Origin: Minisyncoccota bacterium
GTDB lineage: Bacteria; Actinomycetota; Actinomycetes; Nanopelagicales; Nanopelagicaceae
Reading direction: 5' to 3'
DNA length: 64,000 nucleotides
NCBI GenBank assembly: GCA_035530615.1
Contig: DATKUL010000002.1
Span: 948,322-1,012,321, forward strand
Of this stretch, positions 1,077 through 6,898 are shown piece by piece. Position numbers and translations under genes: made by a program. The first letter of the stretch is position 1; the number at the start of each line of letters is the position of its first letter. The notes below the pieces were generated by a model. The model ran no database searches. It was given only the letters and a program-made list of their open reading frames with translations, and was not told the origin of the DNA.

Positions 1077-1277
1077 TTATTGGCCGTCTTCGAAAATAAA
1101 TTCAAGATCAAAGGAATCTGCAGGAATTTCAAGCATCATCGAGACCACGTCGCGTGTCATGACATCAATCTCATCGAGGTTGCGAGCTTGAGTGAAGACA
1201 TTTTCCAGAGATGGAAGTTGAATAAACCAAAATGTGCCATCTTTGGTGACGTTGGCTCTATATGTAGTCTTAATCAT
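1077..1277 (-). CDS. hicB: HicB-like antitoxin (UPF0150/HicB N-terminal fold, no DNA-binding extension)
   Basis: The 66-aa product ...YRANVTKDGTFWFIQLPSLENVFTQARNLDEI... fits the HicB N-domain pattern. It overlaps the upstream hicA by 8 nt, in the typical toxin-then-antitoxin order. Confidence 0.6.
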   Translation of the reverse strand: MIKTTYRANVTKDGTFWFIQLPSLENVFTQARNLDEIDVMTRDVVSMMLEIPADSFDLEFIFEDGQ

Positions 1278-1488
1278 TGTGCCACCATCTTTCTCCGAGG
1301 ACTGGTTGGAATTGTTTCATGATTTGCATCGCAGGTAAATCACCTAACTCTTTATGCCGCGGTATTGGAATACCTAGGTTACTAATTGTCATAATTGAAT
1401 GGCTCCCGCCCTCACGCAGCGTTACATCTCTAATCCCTTGTCGCGCGGCTTGCCGATAAATTTTCTTCAGAAGTTCGCGCCTTTTCAC
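1270..1488 (-). CDS. hicA: HicA-family mRNA-interferase toxin
   Basis: GTG start. The 72-aa product MKRRELLKKI...REGGSHSIM...IPIPRHKELG fits the HicA/YcfA pattern (GSH motif, H-K/R-E-L). Confidence 0.65.
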   Translation of the reverse strand: MKRRELLKKIYRQAARQGIRDVTLREGGSHSIMTISNLGIPIPRHKELGDLPAMQIMKQFQPVLGERWWHND

Positions 1489-1570
1489 GTCGAGAATTAG
1501 AGTGGGTATTCGGTAACTGATGTTTTAGCATTGCATTACCTGTGGAAAAAGAAGCGCTGGAGGTATTACG

Positions 1571-1798
1571 GTGACACGATACAAACTTGAAATTTGTGAG
1601 GATGATCCAGGCTATTGGTCGGCAACATCCAATGTAATCATTGATGGAGAACCTACCCGTTATCTGGTTTTTGCCAACTCACTTAAACAATTGCGAGATC
1701 TGGTTCAAGAGGGTGTCGATGGGGCAATTGGTATTCCATGAATTGCATTTGAAGAAGTTTTCATTTCATCACAAAAGAATGGCGCGACAGTTCTCTAG
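1571..1798 (+). pseudogene. hicB-like antitoxin paralogue inactivated by a nonsense codon, preceded by a ~10-codon hicA 3' remnant at 1545-1574
   Basis: About nine-tenths identical by eye to 3601-3845. Codon 57 is TGA (1739-1741), where the paralogue has GGA. Homology (IAFEEVF vs ISFEEVF) continues past the stop. The upstream ...EKEALEVLR* is the tail of a hicA. Confidence 0.75.
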
Positions 1799-1867
1799 GT
1801 AAAGCAAATCGTCATCAGTAAATGGTAGCCTTCTGTTACACCGCTTGAGGTTTCGTCTTCAAGCCTA

Positions 1868-1891
1868 GGGCTCAACCGAGAGGTTGAGCCC
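1868..1891. terminator. Perfect 10-bp hairpin (GGGCTCAACC-GAGA-GGTTGAGCCC) between convergent hicB' and the NYN pseudogene
   Basis: Perfect inverted repeat with a GAGA tetraloop. It lies 3 nt beyond the NYN gene stop (1895-1897). A weak T-run (TTGTCATTT) follows on the plus strand. Confidence 0.5.
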
Positions 1892-1894
1892 TTG

Positions 1895-2396
1895 TCATTT
1901 CCGCGGATGCGATTTTGCCCAAGACCTAGGCTTTTGAATATTTCCTCCACTCGGCGTCAAATAACTGTCGGGGAATTGATTATTTCGAAGCAGTTCAACG
2001 TCTAAGCGAATAAGAGAACTCGCGGAAGATTTTAGAGATGCCGAATTTTGTCCATCTCCGGGAACTACTACGTGAACAGTTACTCCCTCAGACTTAGTAA
2101 AAAGTAATGGAAGCAAGGCGATGCCAACGAGCATCTTTTCGAAATTTGCCTCGAACTATTTTTACACCAGAATGTTCCAAAACTCGAAGATAAGTAGCTT
2201 GACGATCTGATGCCCGATCCCCTACAAAACGTGACTTAACAGGAGCTGTAAAATAAAATACCCTGCCCAAATTAGCATCGGGTTCGAGAGATTTACAGAG
2301 ACCGACAATATCTAACCATTTACATTCGGGGCGCCTCTCAAGTGAGCCTTTGTAAAGATTGAATCCATCAATATATGCATTAAATGTCGGTTTCAT
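1895..2396 (-). pseudogene. NYN-domain (PIN-like) nuclease gene, frameshifted
   Basis: The N-terminal part MKPTFNAYIDGFNLYKG (NYN hallmark IDGFNLY) runs from ATG 2396 to TAA 2094. The C-terminal part (EKMLVGIAL...VTVHVVVPGDGQNS) continues in the frame offset by 1 nt. That frame is open only below 2156, so a 1-nt indel lies at about 2135-2155, near an A-run. Confidence 0.6.
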
Positions 2397-2493
2397 AGTG
2401 CAATTCTGTCGCCTCAAGTTCAACTCTCTTTCATTATCCACAAGTTACTGAGCGCTAATAAGAAAGGCTTACATGGAATTCCACACTACGGGC

Positions 2494-2609
2494 ATGTCCA
2501 ATTTTCCAACAATGAAGTCTCGCGAATTACTTCGCATTTTGCAGGCAAAACCACTAAATTGTTAATTTATGTGGACAAGGGGAAGGAAGCTTTGGAGGTC
2601 TTACGATGA
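2494..2609 (+). pseudogene. hicA toxin remnant with an internal deletion
   Basis: MSNFPTMKSRELLRILQAKPLNC* (2494-2565) matches the N-terminus of the intact HicA at 3017 (MPKFPSMKAHELLQILLRKPLNY). ...GKEALEVLR* (ending 2609) matches its C-terminus. Roughly 40 central codons, including the GSH motif, are missing. Confidence 0.7.
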
Positions 2610-2824
2610 CACGATATAAATTGGAAATTGAACAAGACAGCACTGGAACATGGGTAGGCACGTCCAACTTGGAACTAGAAGAGGGCAAGACCGCTTACAT
2701 AGTTATCGGAGGCACTTTAGAAGAGTTACGCGAGTTAGTCCAAGAGGGAGTAGCTGGAGATCTCGATATCGAAGGAATTACATTTGAAGAGGTCTTCTTA
2801 ACTAGCTCCGAAGCAACTAAATAG
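2606..2824 (+). CDS. hicB: HicB-like antitoxin (orphaned; cognate toxin decayed)
   Basis: The 72-aa product MTRYKLEIEQDSTGTWVGTSNL...TLEELRELVQEGVAGDL is a paralogue of 3250-3495 and 3627-3845. It has an ATGA overlap with the hicA remnant. Confidence 0.6.
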   Translation: MTRYKLEIEQDSTGTWVGTSNLELEEGKTAYIVIGGTLEELRELVQEGVAGDLDIEGITFEEVFLTSSEATK

Positions 2825-2842
2825 GTAGGACCTTCTTTTTCA

Positions 2843-2866
2843 GGTCGAACCCGACTCGCCCCACTG
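2843..2866 (+). repeat. Partial direct copy of the tRNA-Met 3' end (att-like scar)
   Basis: CCCGACTCGCCCCACTG (2850-2866) is identical to 1043-1059. That includes 3 nt (CTG) beyond the mature tRNA 3' end. The preceding T-loop bases match with 2 mismatches. Confidence 0.7.
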
Positions 2867-3016
2867 CGTGCTGTATTACTCCACCCATTGAACGAGGAGC
2901 GAATCCTCTCAACATCACTCTCAGTAATTTCTTTCCCATAAATCCACGGCGTAATTCCACGCACAGACTACTCAGGGCGAGAAAAGTGAAATCTCGTTAC
3001 AGCAGAGACTTCGCAA

Positions 3017-3253
3017 GTGCCCAAATTCCCGTCCATGAAGGCTCACGAATTACTGCAGATACTTTTGCGAAAACCCCTCAACTACACAATAGTTAGAACT
3101 AATGGCTCTCATCGAACTCTCGTCGCCATGGGGAGGCCCGAGGTCCTCTTTACTTTTCATGCTTCCAGGGAACTTTCAACTCGGAAAGTTAAGGGAGTTT
3201 TAATGGGACAAGTTTATTTAACTCAAGTCGAAGCACTGGAGGTTATCAAGTGA
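3017..3253 (+). CDS. hicA: HicA-family toxin (only intact plus-strand copy)
   Basis: The 78-aa product ...ELLQILLRKPLNYTIVRTNGSHRTLV...FHASRELSTRKVKGVL carries the GSH motif and the HicA C-terminal pattern. It has a GTGA overlap with the downstream hicB. Confidence 0.7.
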   Translation: MPKFPSMKAHELLQILLRKPLNYTIVRTNGSHRTLVAMGRPEVLFTFHASRELSTRKVKGVLMGQVYLTQVEALEVIK

Positions 3254-3495
3254 CTGAATTCAAGTTGGAGATTCAAAATAATGAAGGTAACTGGTGGGCG
3301 TATTCTAATATCGGCACTTCGCAAGAACCTGTGCATTACAATATTTTCGCTAATTCATTAGAAGAGCTTCGTGAATTGTTACAAGAAGGAATCGATGGAG
3401 ATTTGGAGATCGAAGGAATCTCCTTCAAGGAAGTTTTTGTTGAATGTAACTCTTTTGAAATGGAATATCCTGGCAAGAACCTATCTCTCATCTGA
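3250..3495 (+). CDS. hicB: HicB-like antitoxin with a divergent C-terminal tail
   Basis: MTEFKLEIQNNEGNWWAYSNI...SLEELRELLQEGIDGDLEIEGISFKEVF is a paralogue of the other cassettes. Its last ~15 aa are unrelated to the paralogues and end 5 nt before a tRNA-like fragment. Confidence 0.6.
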   Translation: MTEFKLEIQNNEGNWWAYSNIGTSQEPVHYNIFANSLEELRELLQEGIDGDLEIEGISFKEVFVECNSFEMEYPGKNLSLI

Positions 3496-3499
3496 GTGA

Positions 3500-3521
3500 G
3501 TTCAATCCCATCTCGCCCCAC
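3500..3521 (+). repeat. Second, more diverged tRNA 3'-end-like fragment
   Basis: GTTCAATCCCATCTCGCCCCAC vs the tRNA GTTCGAGCCCGACTCGCCCCAC: 18 of 22 match. There is no 5' half, so it is not a functional tRNA. Confidence 0.5.
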
Positions 3522-3531
3522 CAAGTCGTCT

Positions 3532-3630
3532 AGATTTAGTGCGAAAGAACTTTCGGGACATCAGATTCGTGACGTTCTTATGGACGACCTAGGACTCGCT
3601 GAAAAAGAAGCACTGGAGGTATTACGGTGA
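3532..3630 (+). pseudogene. hicA 3' remnant (C-terminal ~30 codons only)
   Basis: ...FSAKELSGHQIRDVLMDDLGLAEKEALEVLR* aligns with HASRELSTRKVKGVLMGQVYLTQVEALEVIK* of the intact HicA. The 5' part is replaced by the tRNA-like fragment. Confidence 0.65.
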
Positions 3631-3845
3631 CACAACACAAACTTGAAATTTGTGAGGATGATCCAGGCTATTGGTCGGCAACATCCAATCTGATCATTGA
3701 CGGAGAGCCTACCCGTTACCTGGTTTTTGCCAACTCACTTAAGGAATTGCGGGAGTTAATTCAAGAGGGCGTCGATGGGGCAATTGGTATCCCAGGAATT
3801 TCTTTTGAAGAAGTTTTCTTAACTAAGTCCGAGGCAACTAGTTAG
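3627..3845 (+). CDS. hicB: HicB-like antitoxin (orphaned)
   Basis: The 72-aa product MTQHKLEICEDDPGYWSATSNL...SLKELRELIQEGVDGAIGIPGISFEEVF is the intact counterpart of pseudogene 1571-1798. GTGA overlap with the hicA remnant. Confidence 0.6.
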   Translation: MTQHKLEICEDDPGYWSATSNLIIDGEPTRYLVFANSLKELRELIQEGVDGAIGIPGISFEEVFLTKSEATS

Positions 3846-3855
3846 GTAGGACTTT

Positions 3856-4995
3856 CTACTTTTCATACTTATAGTCAACCAAACGTTGTTCCGCAGGGAC
3901 CTTGAACCCGTTGCACTCCCAAGGATAGGCAAGAACACCTTGCTCAAAGGTGGCATCAGGAGCAAAACATTTCCAATAGAAGAATGCATCTCCTTGAACC
4001 CAGTGCAAGTTTCTGTCTCCTGATTTAACAGTTGGATTCAAAGATTTATCTGGGACCTTCATCCTTATCGGTGCTTGCGAGTGAGTACCAACGCTTCCTG
4101 AATATGCAATGACAGCGCCTCGCTTTACTTCACGGCCAAGAAGTGCTTGGCAGGCGGCTGAGGTCGCATTACCGGCGTATGCGGAATCATTTTCTGTATA
4201 GAACTGCCAACCTTCCGCCCGTAGTGGTCCTGGCCATTCTTTGGCATTACTACACAAAGGATCCTTGTCTATTCCCAACAATAATGGGGAGTTTTGCAGG
4301 TGGTAGAAACAAATAATTAGCCCAGGCCAATCTGAACTTGTTGATTCAAAACATAATTCCAAATCGTTGAATGGGACTTGTAGCGTTCCATCCATTCCGT
4401 TTCTGAATTCAGAATTTCGATTATTGAAACCGATGAAACGGGCATCGACTGGTGCCAGGATTGGCTCACCATTACCTATTTCAAAGTTAACACCGCTTTT
4501 CCCATCGTAGTATCCCAACTCTGGTCGGCTTCCTGTTTTTGGTCCAAGTGTTACAAAAGCTGGGTCCATTCCGCCGCTGAAGAGAAAGTGCTGAACATTT
4601 ATTCCTTGCATATTGATTGGACGCTTCGTAATTGCGGAAACAGAATTTTCAGGTGGAAAAATTATGGACGTCCGTGCTGGACTTGGCGTTGGCCTCTGTT
4701 TCAATGGTGGTTTGGCAGTGGATGATGAGGAAGGTGAGGCAGTCGGAGTTGGAGTAGGAGTTTGGGTGGGAGTGGGAGTTGGGGTCGAAACCTTGACCCG
4801 AACGCCCTTATTCCAAATCAATTTCTTGCCAGACTTGACACAGGTAAATATCTTGCCGTGGTAGGTCACTTTTTGTTTGTATACCTTGCAGACGGCCCCT
4901 GCAGAGATTTTTGTAACTGAGAAAGCGGTAACAGGCAAGAGACTTAAAAGAAGTCCAATAAGAACTCCCTTTACTATGAGACTTATGACTCTCAT
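3856..4995 (-). CDS. Secreted protein with a Pro/Thr linker and a degenerate M23/LytM-like C-terminal domain
   Basis: Signal-like N-terminus (LIGLLLSLLPVTAFS). A small Cys-containing module (GAVCKVYKQKVTYHGKIFTCVKSGKKLIWNKG). A linker TPTPTPTQTPTPTPTASPSSSS. The C-terminal ...GEPILAPVDARFIG...GAVIAYSGSVGTHSQAPIRM resembles the M23 layout but lacks the HxH pair. Confidence 0.5.
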   Translation of the reverse strand: MRVISLIVKGVLIGLLLSLLPVTAFSVTKISAGAVCKVYKQKVTYHGKIFTCVKSGKKLIWNKGVRVKVSTPTPTPTQTPTPTPTASPSSSSTAKPPLKQRPTPSPARTSIIFPPENSVSAITKRPINMQGINVQHFLFSGGMDPAFVTLGPKTGSRPELGYYDGKSGVNFEIGNGEPILAPVDARFIGFNNRNSEFRNGMDGTLQVPFNDLELCFESTSSDWPGLIICFYHLQNSPLLLGIDKDPLCSNAKEWPGPLRAEGWQFYTENDSAYAGNATSAACQALLGREVKRGAVIAYSGSVGTHSQAPIRMKVPDKSLNPTVKSGDRNLHWVQGDAFFYWKCFAPDATFEQGVLAYPWECNGFKVPAEQRLVDYKYEK

Positions 4996-5018: not shown

Positions 5019-5626
5019 TTAAACCACCAGTTTTAGGGCAACCGCATTCCGCATGAGAGTTTGCCGTGTTTGAGCTCTTGGGTAATGTATATAGACAGTG
5101 TCGGAAGTTCCATGCATCGAAATAACTTCGCCCATCATCGAATTTATGTCATATCCCACCATCAACCCACTTGCAGTCACCGTCGTAATAGGTTCGGACC
5201 AGAGCCTTTCTTAACATATGAAATAGAACGACGCTCATCGATGCTGTCATCATGGACGATATCAAATCCTGAAATGTCTCCCAACCAGTAGGCTCCTCCT
5301 CTGTCCAAACGGATATGTTCGACAAATTCCGAAGATGACAGGGCAACCGCACCTACACGCATGAGCGCCAGCGAAGTTTCATTCTTTGATGATGCAGAGG
5401 CATACGAAAAACCAGCGGAAACGAGAGCGATGGAAAGTATCGCGTCTAGGCTCAGCATGCCTATGCGGCGTGGGTGCTTTCGAATATATCGGACTGCCGT
5501 CGACTCTTTTTTTAGTAAAAAGTCATATATTGAGCGTATAAGTGAAATCATGAAAAGCACCTTTATGGAGAAGGGTTTAGTGGCGAGTTCTGCCTTTGGG
5601 TTCCCCAATGCCATTAGTACTCGCAT
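5019..5626 (-). pseudogene. Frameshifted member of an uncharacterised membrane-anchored protein family (paralogue of 34359-34976 and 35315-35956)
   Basis: Frame A (to TGA 5177-5179) gives ...RKHPRRIGMLSLDAILSIALVSAGFSY...GGAYWLGD...ISYVKKGSGPN. Homology continues in the frame offset by 1 nt (ITTVTASGLMVGYD...SDTVYIHYP...RNAVALKLVV*), ending at TAA 5019-5021. That frame is open only below 5211, so the indel lies within 5180-5210. Confidence 0.6.
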
Positions 5627-5744
5627 TCACGTCGTTACTTTTGTGTATGCTCGAACATGCTCGGGCAGAATTACTCGTGGTTATCGCCTAGAACTCGCTA
5701 CTTTTCTGGGTATAGGCTGAGGAAATCGCGAAGGGAAGTGGTTC

Positions 5745-6728
5745 ATGGAGTATGTGCGCAAAATCTCAAACCTGACAACTTTCCTGTATGAGACCAACCC
5801 GTCCTCGGATTCCATCGCACGTTTTCTTGTCTTAGATACTTTTTCACCATTCGAACCAAGCGGACTCCTCCTCGGGCTGCTTCAATCGAATGGATCGATT
5901 AAGGCCACAGGCAATTTCGGAGTTAGCGAAGGAATCCGGAATGAAGTTGTTGCAATCGCAAACGGGCCGTTGAGTCCATTCTCTCAATCTATGCAGAAGG
6001 ACAAAGTCCTGAGCCTGCACGGACTCGGTGATTTACTGCCGCACTCCTCCAAAGAGATAAGAATGGAGGGTCATCTTTCTGGTCTTGACTACTCACTGGC
6101 CTGGCCGATTCATTACTTAGGAGTTGGGCTCCTCTTTTTTAGTGAGGAAATCGCACTCGACTCTCTCGATGAACTTTTTTTCCGCTCGGTTGGTGGAATG
6201 CTCGCACTTCACCATACTTACACGAAGACACTGTCAGATTTCACTGAAGGAGTTGGATTAGCAGGTCCGGCGGGACCGCAAGGTACGACCGGTGCGGCGG
6301 GACCGCAAGGTACAACCGGCACAACCGGTGCGACCGGTGCGACCGGCACAACAGGTACAACCGGCGAGGCGGGACCGCAAGGTACAACGGGCGCGACGGG
6401 CACAACAGGTACAACCGGCGAGGCGGGACCGCAAGGCACAACCGGTACAACAGGTGCAGTTGGCACAACGGGTGCGACCGGTGCGACAGGACCCGCTGCA
6501 GTTTCAGCCAGCTCTAAAAATCAACCGCTAATGGCAGAAAGTAAGGAACTTACTTCTCGCCAAAAAATTATTCTCAGTGAGATACGTCGAGGTAAGACCA
6601 ATGAAACTATTGCGCTAAGCCTAAATTTCAGTTCCTCTTTAATACGACAAGAGACAATGGAAATCTACCGAAAGATGGGAGTGAGCGGCCGTAAAGAACT
6701 CATGGAAATGGACAATAATGAGGAATGA
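5745..6728 (+). CDS. LuxR/GerE-family regulator with an N-terminal sensor-like (possibly GAF-like) domain and a central collagen-like G-X-Y repeat
   Basis: ATG preceded by GAAGGGA. No signal peptide or TM segment. Residues 171-251 are 27 uninterrupted Gly-X-Y triplets ([22 protein letters not shown]...GATGATGPA). The C-terminus [51 protein letters not shown] fits the GerE HTH pattern. Confidence 0.8.
6255..6497 (+). repeat. In-frame 9-bp-periodic (GGN-ACN-ACN type) tandem repeat encoding the collagen-like tract
   Basis: 243 nt of GGx-xxx-xxx triplets. Longer imperfect units recur, e.g. GGCGAGGCGGGACCGCAAGG at about 6363 and 6417. The region is locally GC-rich and is open in several frames on both strands (track ORFs 6218-6466, 6241-6468, 6292-6531). 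Confidence 0.9.
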
Positions 6729-6767
6729 AAATGGCAGATAACTCATAACTCATGTAGCCTTTGAATT

Positions 6768-6865
6768 CACGGGAGTTCGGTAATACCGGACTGAGAGGAA
6801 GACTACGGAGTCTTCGACCGTCAAACCTGACATGGGTAATGCCAACGCAGGGAGACCGCTCTTAC
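6768..6865 (+). promoter_or_regulatory. TPP (THI-box) riboswitch
   Basis: The conserved elements appear in order: ACGGGAG...CTGAGA...ACCGT...AACCTGA...GGGTAATGCC..CGCAGGGA. It lies directly upstream of a thiamine-binding-protein gene. The downstream hairpin GTGCC-N14-GGCAC includes the GAAAGG Shine-Dalgarno before ATG 6899. Confidence 0.85.
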
Positions 6866-6898
6866 AACCCGTGCCTATTCATTACGAAAGGCACAGAA

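Follow-up and report, generated by a model that had tools for sequence, protein, structure and literature searches.

The genomic stretch considered here (the window) covers 64,000 nucleotides, from position 948,322 to position 1,012,321 of contig DATKUL010000002.1 in the metagenome-assembled genome (MAG) GCA_035530615.1. It contains a complete gene for a GAF-linker-LuxR/GerE one-component regulator, in which the linker is a collagen-like tract of uninterrupted Gly-X-Y triplets (Table 1). The open reading frame (ORF) begins with ATG and runs without interruption through 327 amino acids (aa). Its product is NCBI entry HUW88270.1, publicly annotated only as a "helix-turn-helix transcriptional regulator," with the collagen-like tract unmentioned. 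An initial annotation, made from the letters of the sequence and its ORFs, had divided the product into a sensor-like N terminus of about 170 aa, 27 perfect Gly-X-Y triplets, and a helix-turn-helix (HTH) domain. Translation, Pfam, AlphaFold2 (AF2), and Foldseek all bear out this three-part architecture, and the triplets are exactly those that had been listed.

Table 1. Features of the regulator gene and its upstream region (window coordinates; pLDDT, predicted local distance difference test)
Feature	Coordinates	Strand	Evidence
GAF / collagen-like / GerE-LuxR regulator gene, complete	5745..6728	+	ORF list, translation, exact database look-up
GAF-fold sensor domain, N-terminal, aa 1-170	5745..6254	+	AF2 pLDDT; Foldseek against PDB
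Collagen-like tract, 27 uninterrupted Gly-X-Y triplets, aa 171-251	6255..6497	+	Translation; PF01391, 52.1 bits
Non-collagen spacer between tract and HTH, aa 252-267 (16 aa)	6498..6545	+	Alignment; AF2 pLDDT <50
GerE/LuxR-type four-helix HTH, predicted DNA-binding, aa 268-322	6546..6710	+	PF00196; profile-PDB matches; AF2
Conserved 20-bp box TGCTCGAACATGCTCGGGCA, candidate operator	5648..5667	+	Upstream alignment and pattern search
Element CTGGGTATAGGCTGAGG just upstream of the gene, probable core promoter / -10 region	5706..5722	+	Conserved columns of the upstream alignment
Divergent neighbor gene, ~205 aa	5019..5626	-	BLASTP against the neighbors in L010, L014, and L011, 31-63% identity

The two ends of the protein were modeled with confidence. 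In an AF2 model of the monomer, which used a 22-sequence alignment of the family, pLDDT was mostly 85 to 94 across aa 1 to 165, and the C-terminal domain consisted of four helices with pLDDT above 90. Every top match of the N-terminal part in a Foldseek search of the PDB was a GAF domain (E values of 8e-6 to 1e-4; TM-scores normalized to the target of 0.6 to 0.7), which gives the sensor-like N terminus a GAF fold. Its likeness to GAF sequence models, also raised in the initial annotation, held for the wider family and not for the window protein itself: Pfam GAF_2 was found in 22 of 80 members (best 1.4e-8) and GAF in 6 of 80, whereas the window protein had no Pfam GAF match at E values up to 1. 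At the other end, the HTH matched Pfam GerE (PF00196) at 29.9 bits, above the cut-off of 23.5, and the family profile matched the C-terminal DNA-binding domains of ComA, NarL, GerE, and VraR in the PDB. Because of the GAF fold and the GerE-type HTH matches, we identify the protein as a one-component regulator. With a highest 19-residue Kyte-Doolittle mean of 1.22, the protein gives no indication of a membrane segment or a signal-peptide h-region, and a sequence scan found neither an LPXTG motif nor any Cys, in agreement with the earlier reading that signal peptide, transmembrane segment, and sortase motif are missing. Based on this hydrophobicity maximum and the lack of LPXTG, the protein is predicted to be cytoplasmic.

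The tract itself is composed of 33% Gly, 33% Thr, 16% Ala, 7.4% Pro, 4.9% Gln, and 2.5% Glu, and its match to the Pfam Collagen family (PF01391) exceeds the cut-off of 27.2 bits, so that both of the Pfam families anticipated for the product are found above their cut-offs. No other run of five or more G-X-Y triplets occurs in the six frames of the 64-kb window, and 0.05 such runs are expected in shuffled sequence. The GC content of the tract is 0.68, compared with 0.46 for the remainder of the gene, and part of its DNA repeats in tandem at periods of 9, 18, 27, and 54 bp, with a 96% match between the 54-bp units. Since conserved domains flank the tract on both sides, the reading frame through it is secure; ORFs on the reverse strand within the tract (PVVP repeats) were dismissed as mirror images of the repeat. 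A metagenome scan added two close relatives, L017 and L018 (JGI contigs Ga0255338_1012815 and Ga0172380_10089108), and each contig ends within the tract. Because short-read assemblies of relatives are interrupted within the tract, its copy number is sensitive to assembly, and the tract lengths in public assemblies, including the 27 triplets of the window, are provisional and assembly-dependent.

The window protein belongs to a small family of GAF-LuxR regulators of about 240 aa from freshwater Actinobacteria ("Ca. Nanopelagicaceae"). A word-indexed search among 5.8 billion proteins yielded 12 matches to the N-terminal domain with the single sequence and 22 with a profile, and these 22 homologs all come from lake or groundwater actinobacterial MAGs, either Nanopelagicaceae or uncultured freshwater lineages. 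When 1.84 billion representatives were searched exhaustively with a profile, 59 proteins were found at E values up to 1e-30, along with about 150 full-length GAF-LuxR matches, nearly all of them 230 to 260 aa long; just 9 of these roughly 150 representatives have eight or more G-X-Y triplets. The tract comprises 27 triplets in the window, 23 in P0041, 18 in P0015, 17 in both P0036 and P0019, 13 in both P0012 and P0020, 11 in P0009, and 8 in P0005. Among loci from GTDB genomes, L002 has 31 triplets, L001 has 18, and L003 has 20 to 21 followed by a break and then 6 more. Tracts of at least eight triplets, ranging from 8 to 31, are thus confined to one group among all of the proteins collected.

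Within this group the site of the tract is constant, immediately following the GAF domain's long C-terminal helix and preceding the HTH by about 16 residues, and in most members of a crown group the tract opens with G(L/P)xGP(A/T)GP(Q/P)G; the spacer that follows it is partially conserved among close relatives. The window tract falls in the Thr/Ala-rich crown group. An in-frame G-X-Y tract lies at the same site between the same two conserved domains in at least 12 assemblies made independently from different samples. In most family members, a linker of about 25 aa connects the domains instead, and linkers of the Ser/Pro/charged low-complexity type occur in other members. The short linker of tract-less members is probably disordered, as the model of the tract-less ortholog P0007 has 26 linker residues with AlphaFold pLDDT below 50. 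No ortholog among the relatives collected encodes the three parts as separate genes, an arrangement that the initial annotation had named as a sign against the fused architecture. The gene order around the regulator, with the divergent neighbor upstream and DMT_YdcZ, a response regulator/histidine kinase pair, and a CMAS methyltransferase downstream, is kept in orthologs with and without the tract. The window and L002, a "Ca. Nanopelagicaceae" MAG (JBAZYI010000009), share 81% DNA identity and are syntenic across 7 kb. NCBI labels the source MAG of the window as Candidatus Paceibacterota; given this identity and synteny, and given that the relatives are from Nanopelagicaceae or freshwater actinobacteria, the label is probably wrong.

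In a neighbor-joining tree built from non-linker columns, all tract bearers fall into one clade, in which L003 and P0041 are basal, with 27% GAF identity to the window protein. Tract-less members are nested within this clade, namely, a 249-aa group (sister to P0005, with its eight triplets), P0010 together with P0011, and P0001, and the outgroups of the clade have no tract. On these grounds the simplest history is probably a single gain of the tract in the ancestor of the clade, followed by at least three losses or decays. One of these is seen directly in P0001, which has 86% GAF identity to the window protein and a linker reading GLP DSA EPP GTT QVK ELT GMS DLA, where D, E, and Q stand in the place of glycines; this linker is a decayed tract, and decay follows the loss of glycines. 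Length also changes fast, through in-frame tandem duplication or deletion of multiples of 9 bp: recent DNA tandem duplications are evident in the tracts of the window, L001, L002, and L003, and P0009 and L002 have 11 and 31 triplets, respectively, with 92% GAF identity and 98% HTH identity outside the tract.

Replication slippage alone does not account for the Gly periodicity, because tracts with non-repetitive DNA retain it. The tracts of P0012 and P0020 each have 13 uninterrupted triplets, and tandem DNA repeats were not detected in them, with all 9-base units differing. In an ungapped comparison of the two, 13 of 13 glycines are kept and 8 of the 13 Gly codons differ synonymously, while the residues differ at 8 of 13 X positions and at all 13 Y positions.

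The residues between the glycines are also distributed in a collagen-like way. Bacterial collagens are reported to have Pro in X and Thr in Y (PMC8968730), and in the window tract Pro occurs solely in X and Gln solely in Y. Across the family, Lys is found once in X and 28 times in Y, Glu or Asp 27 times in X and 6 times in Y, Gln 0 and 21 times, and Leu 21 and 0 times; K(Y)-G-E/D(X) motifs number 15, compared with 4.75 ± 1.69 in within-tract shuffles of X and Y residues (0 of 5,000 shuffles reached 15), all of these counts being non-independent, since the sequences are related and some motifs lie within recent repeats. P0012, P0036, and P0041 are rich in K-G-E motifs. Such K-G-E/D motifs form interchain salt bridges and are reported as "clamps" of the triple helix, anomalously frequent in collagens and collagen-like proteins from every domain of life (PMC11923368). 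The X/Y asymmetry and the K-G-E/D excess would suit a triple helix and, in a random coil, would lack an obvious meaning. Taken with the glycines kept in non-repetitive tracts, these preferences argue for selection for a triple helix, beyond mere replication slippage.

The upstream region is also shared by members with and without the tract. In an alignment of 11 loci of both kinds, the box TGCTCGAACATGCTCGGGCA is conserved in the divergent promoter region; it consists of two 10-bp direct repeats (TGYTCGRNCA, twice) and is simultaneously an imperfect palindrome. A degenerate form of the pattern has its sole match in the window, on both strands, at this box. We infer that the box is a candidate operator of the regulator, and the conserved element CTGGGTATAGGCTGAGG that follows it probably represents the core promoter or -10 region; a simple scan for promoter and terminator consensus sequences gave nothing above chance. 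The divergent neighbor has a single hydrophobic segment, which is probably membrane spanning, and no Pfam match. In the window, this gene is broken into two ORFs that overlap (5177-5626 and 5019-5180), the C-terminal part being in another frame, owing either to a sequencing error or to a frameshift that makes it a pseudogene; the neighbor is a possible regulatory target of the regulator. At L014, about 1.8 kb separates the regulator ortholog from an upstream IS481-type transposase gene (rve domain; 40-1236, + strand), with two paralogous copies of the neighbor gene in between.

Downstream of the regulator gene, a thiamine pyrophosphate (TPP) riboswitch (6759-6870, + strand; 52.1 bits compared with the Rfam gathering score of 54.3; E value of 8e-9) precedes genes for a solute-binding protein and a permease (6761/6896-9479), which probably form a thiamine-related ATP-binding cassette (ABC) importer. 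The ATG near 6896 is a more likely start for the importer than the listed TTG at 6761, which lies inside the riboswitch. This transporter was considered as a target of the regulator and judged unlikely, as it has a TPP riboswitch of its own and is absent at the locus of the tract-less ortholog.

On the other side of the regulator, beside a tRNA gene (983-1056), window positions 1077 to 3845 hold an island of small genes that by eye resemble toxin-antitoxin genes. They include HicA-like ORFs at 1270-1488 (- strand) and 3017-3253 (+ strand), an HicB-like ORF at 1077-1277 (- strand), and four paralogous ORFs of 56 to 81 aa starting with MT(R/Q/E)xKLEI at 1571, 2606, 3250, and 3627 (+ strand). In L002, only about 0.9 kb separates the genes that flank this island, which looks like an insertion or expansion at the tRNA. 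At the edge of the island, the ORF at 3856-4995 (- strand) encodes a 379-aa protein with a hydrophobic N-terminal leader, a long Thr/Pro/Ser-rich linker, TPTPTPTQTPTPTPTASPSSSS, and no Pfam match; based on its leader and linker, it is probably secreted.

What the Gly-X-Y tract does within the regulator can be framed around one proposal. The segment would have been selected for triple-helix formation, and three chains would be bundled into a stalk with a length of up to ~23 nm for the 81 residues of the window tract, given that a triple helix rises by about 0.286 nm per residue. The GAF sensors would be clustered at one end of the stalk and three flexibly tethered HTHs at the other, and this clustering would raise the local HTH concentration and the cooperativity at an operator of two half-sites within the divergent promoter of the regulator itself. 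Being rich in Thr and Ala with 7% Pro, the helix would probably have only marginal stability at lake temperatures, and the tract would be an accessory feature, dispensable for the core function of the regulator. By analogy, collagen-like trimers can fold in the bacterial cytoplasm, since SPP1 gp12, a phage protein, is listed as a collagen-like trimer (PMC7602432). In our judgment, the evidence leaves the formation of a collagen-type triple helix by the tract evenly balanced.

Several observations weigh against this proposal, besides the non-independence of the residue counts. The 81 residues of the window tract include only 6 Pro and 2 charged residues, both Glu, with no Lys, and the K-G-E/D motif is absent from it. 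In the AF2 monomer, aa 168 to 264 (tract and spacer) have pLDDT below 50. GAF domains and GerE-type HTHs usually act as dimers, and no recognized trimerization or nucleation module flanks the tract, which has the GAF fold on one side and the 16-aa spacer and HTH on the other. The box TGCTCGAACATGCTCGGGCA has two half-sites rather than three, and inspection by eye revealed no third 10-bp repeat beside it. Syntenic orthologs exist in which the tract is missing or decayed and the HTH, including its recognition helix, is nearly identical. The low rate of glycine substitution in triplet-aligned pairs (2 of 77, compared with 51 of 154 at X and Y positions together) is partly circular, as the tracts were defined as perfect G-X-Y. 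Further, Ac-(Gly-Pro-Thr)10 remains a random coil as long as its threonines are not glycosylated (PMC11923368). The tract-less orthologs with the same HTH, the two half-sites, and the paucity of Pro and charge in the tract argue against an obligatory trimeric mode of DNA binding. A role as a rigid "ruler" also fits poorly, since tracts span 8 to 31 triplets and near-identical relatives have 11 and 31.

The main alternative is that the tract is a flexible low-complexity tether without a triple helix, with its periodicity a by-product of 9-bp slippage, in a dimeric protein whose HTH reach it would at most tune. We find this alternative plausible, although on balance doubtful. The tract does occupy the position of the low-confidence, probably disordered linker of orthologs, but the ordinary Ser/Pro/charged disordered linkers elsewhere in the family imply that G-X-Y repeats are not needed for flexibility. 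Slippage is a fitting source for the tracts of the window and L002, which are clear DNA tandem repeats, and for the hypervariable length seen between P0009 and L002, whereas P0012 and P0020, with non-repetitive DNA, retain every third Gly despite saturated divergence at X and Y. Likewise, at least three lineages have lost the tract or let it decay and yet kept the gene, while elsewhere the tract persists down to 27% GAF identity. The shortage of Pro and charge in the window tract and the two half-sites of the candidate operator are as expected for a tethered dimer; the strong X-versus-Y asymmetry and the K-G-E/D excess across the family are without rationale in a random coil.

A second alternative is a special case of the triple-helix proposal, in which a deliberately weak triple helix would serve as a temperature or concentration switch with its length tuned in each strain; we consider it improbable. 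The composition predicts low stability (Thr-rich triplets; PMC11923368), and tract length varies strongly among close relatives from lakes with seasonal temperature ranges, but tract-less orthologs live in similar habitats. Among phages, a collagen-like protein is called a "temperature-dependent reversible binder" in the title of a 2014 paper by Zairi et al. that both PMC7602432 and PMC11923368 cite. The more specific form, in which a marginal triple helix would make a reversible trimer switch whose set point changes with repeat number from strain to strain, is speculative and rather unlikely to hold, and cotrimerization of the tract with phage collagen-like proteins during infection would be even more speculative.

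Finally, the breaks of short-read contigs inside the tract and the weak local matches to NCBIfam models of Scl1, Scl2, and Lcl might suggest an assembly artefact or chimera or a secreted surface collagen-like adhesin, but both are effectively excluded, the former by the recurrence of the tract, in frame and at the same site, in at least 12 independent assemblies and the latter by the lack of a signal peptide, membrane segment, or LPXTG motif, by the flanking GAF and HTH domains, and by scores of 49 to 54 bits for models NF038330, NF038329, and NF046116, which have cut-offs of 325 to 500 and matched the repeats only.

Each part of this protein is known in kind from other systems. Like Scl1 and Scl2 of Streptococcus pyogenes and BclA of the Bacillus anthracis exosporium, it has an uninterrupted (Gly-X-Y)n tract recognized by PF01391; Thr dominates in Y and Pro occurs in X, hydroxyproline is absent (PMC8968730), and length polymorphism arises through in-frame repeat changes in both cases. 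However, Scl and BclA proteins are secreted and surface anchored and have domains for trimerization (the V domain of Scl and the C-terminal globular domain of BclA), whereas the window protein lacks both an export signal and an anchor, has GAF and HTH domains on either side of its tract, and scores far below the NCBIfam Scl/Lcl cut-offs. It shares domain order, size, HTH sequence, synteny, and the upstream box with ordinary actinobacterial GAF-LuxR/GerE (CsgD-like) regulators, in which a short low-confidence linker takes the place of the 8 to 31 collagen-like triplets of the window clade.

In principle, the proposed stalk would resemble a small intracellular collectin. Collectins, C1q, and class A scavenger receptors gain avidity from a collagen stalk that holds three recognition heads together. 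Those proteins are extracellular, hydroxylated, and nucleated by a coiled coil or C1q domain; they do not bind DNA and have no homology to the window protein beyond the G-X-Y repeats.

Phage collagen-like proteins (SPP1 gp12 and tail fibers) also have short G-X-Y tracts and fold without secretion or hydroxylation, and phages of Nanopelagicales bear collagen-like genes in hypervariable islands (PMC10202952). These phage proteins serve as structural or decoration components of the virion, unlike the window protein, which is a regulator and has no homolog in the phage collection. A phage origin is unsupported: a tblastn search of the protein against 50,697 phage records was empty, with the low-complexity filter probably masking the repeats, and blastn of the tract against phages gave a lone weak generic match (83 nt, 75% identity) to a Streptomyces phage tail fiber.

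The combination of these parts, with a collagen-like tract as the interdomain linker of a GAF-LuxR regulator, is apparently undescribed in the literature searched, in line with the initial annotation, which knew of no precedent; the coverage of that literature is incomplete. The bacterial collagen-like proteins in the literature surveyed are surface or spore adhesins or phage fibers. If a selected collagen segment in a cytoplasmic regulator is real, it would widen the use of the triple helix to intracellular oligomerization or spacing, possibly of a thermolabile kind, and would offer a natural system in which repeat number alters the architecture of a transcription factor. The reversible trimer switch, if true, would give the collagen triple helix its first regulatory role within a bacterial cell. 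If there is no triple helix, the family would be an example of strict G-X-Y periodicity and collagen-like X/Y biases being maintained in its absence. Nanopelagicales is described as the most abundant lineage of freshwater bacterioplankton (PMC12817590), and its high microdiversity is poorly explained (PMC10202952); a regulator with a hypervariable tract would therefore be relevant to the biology of this lineage.

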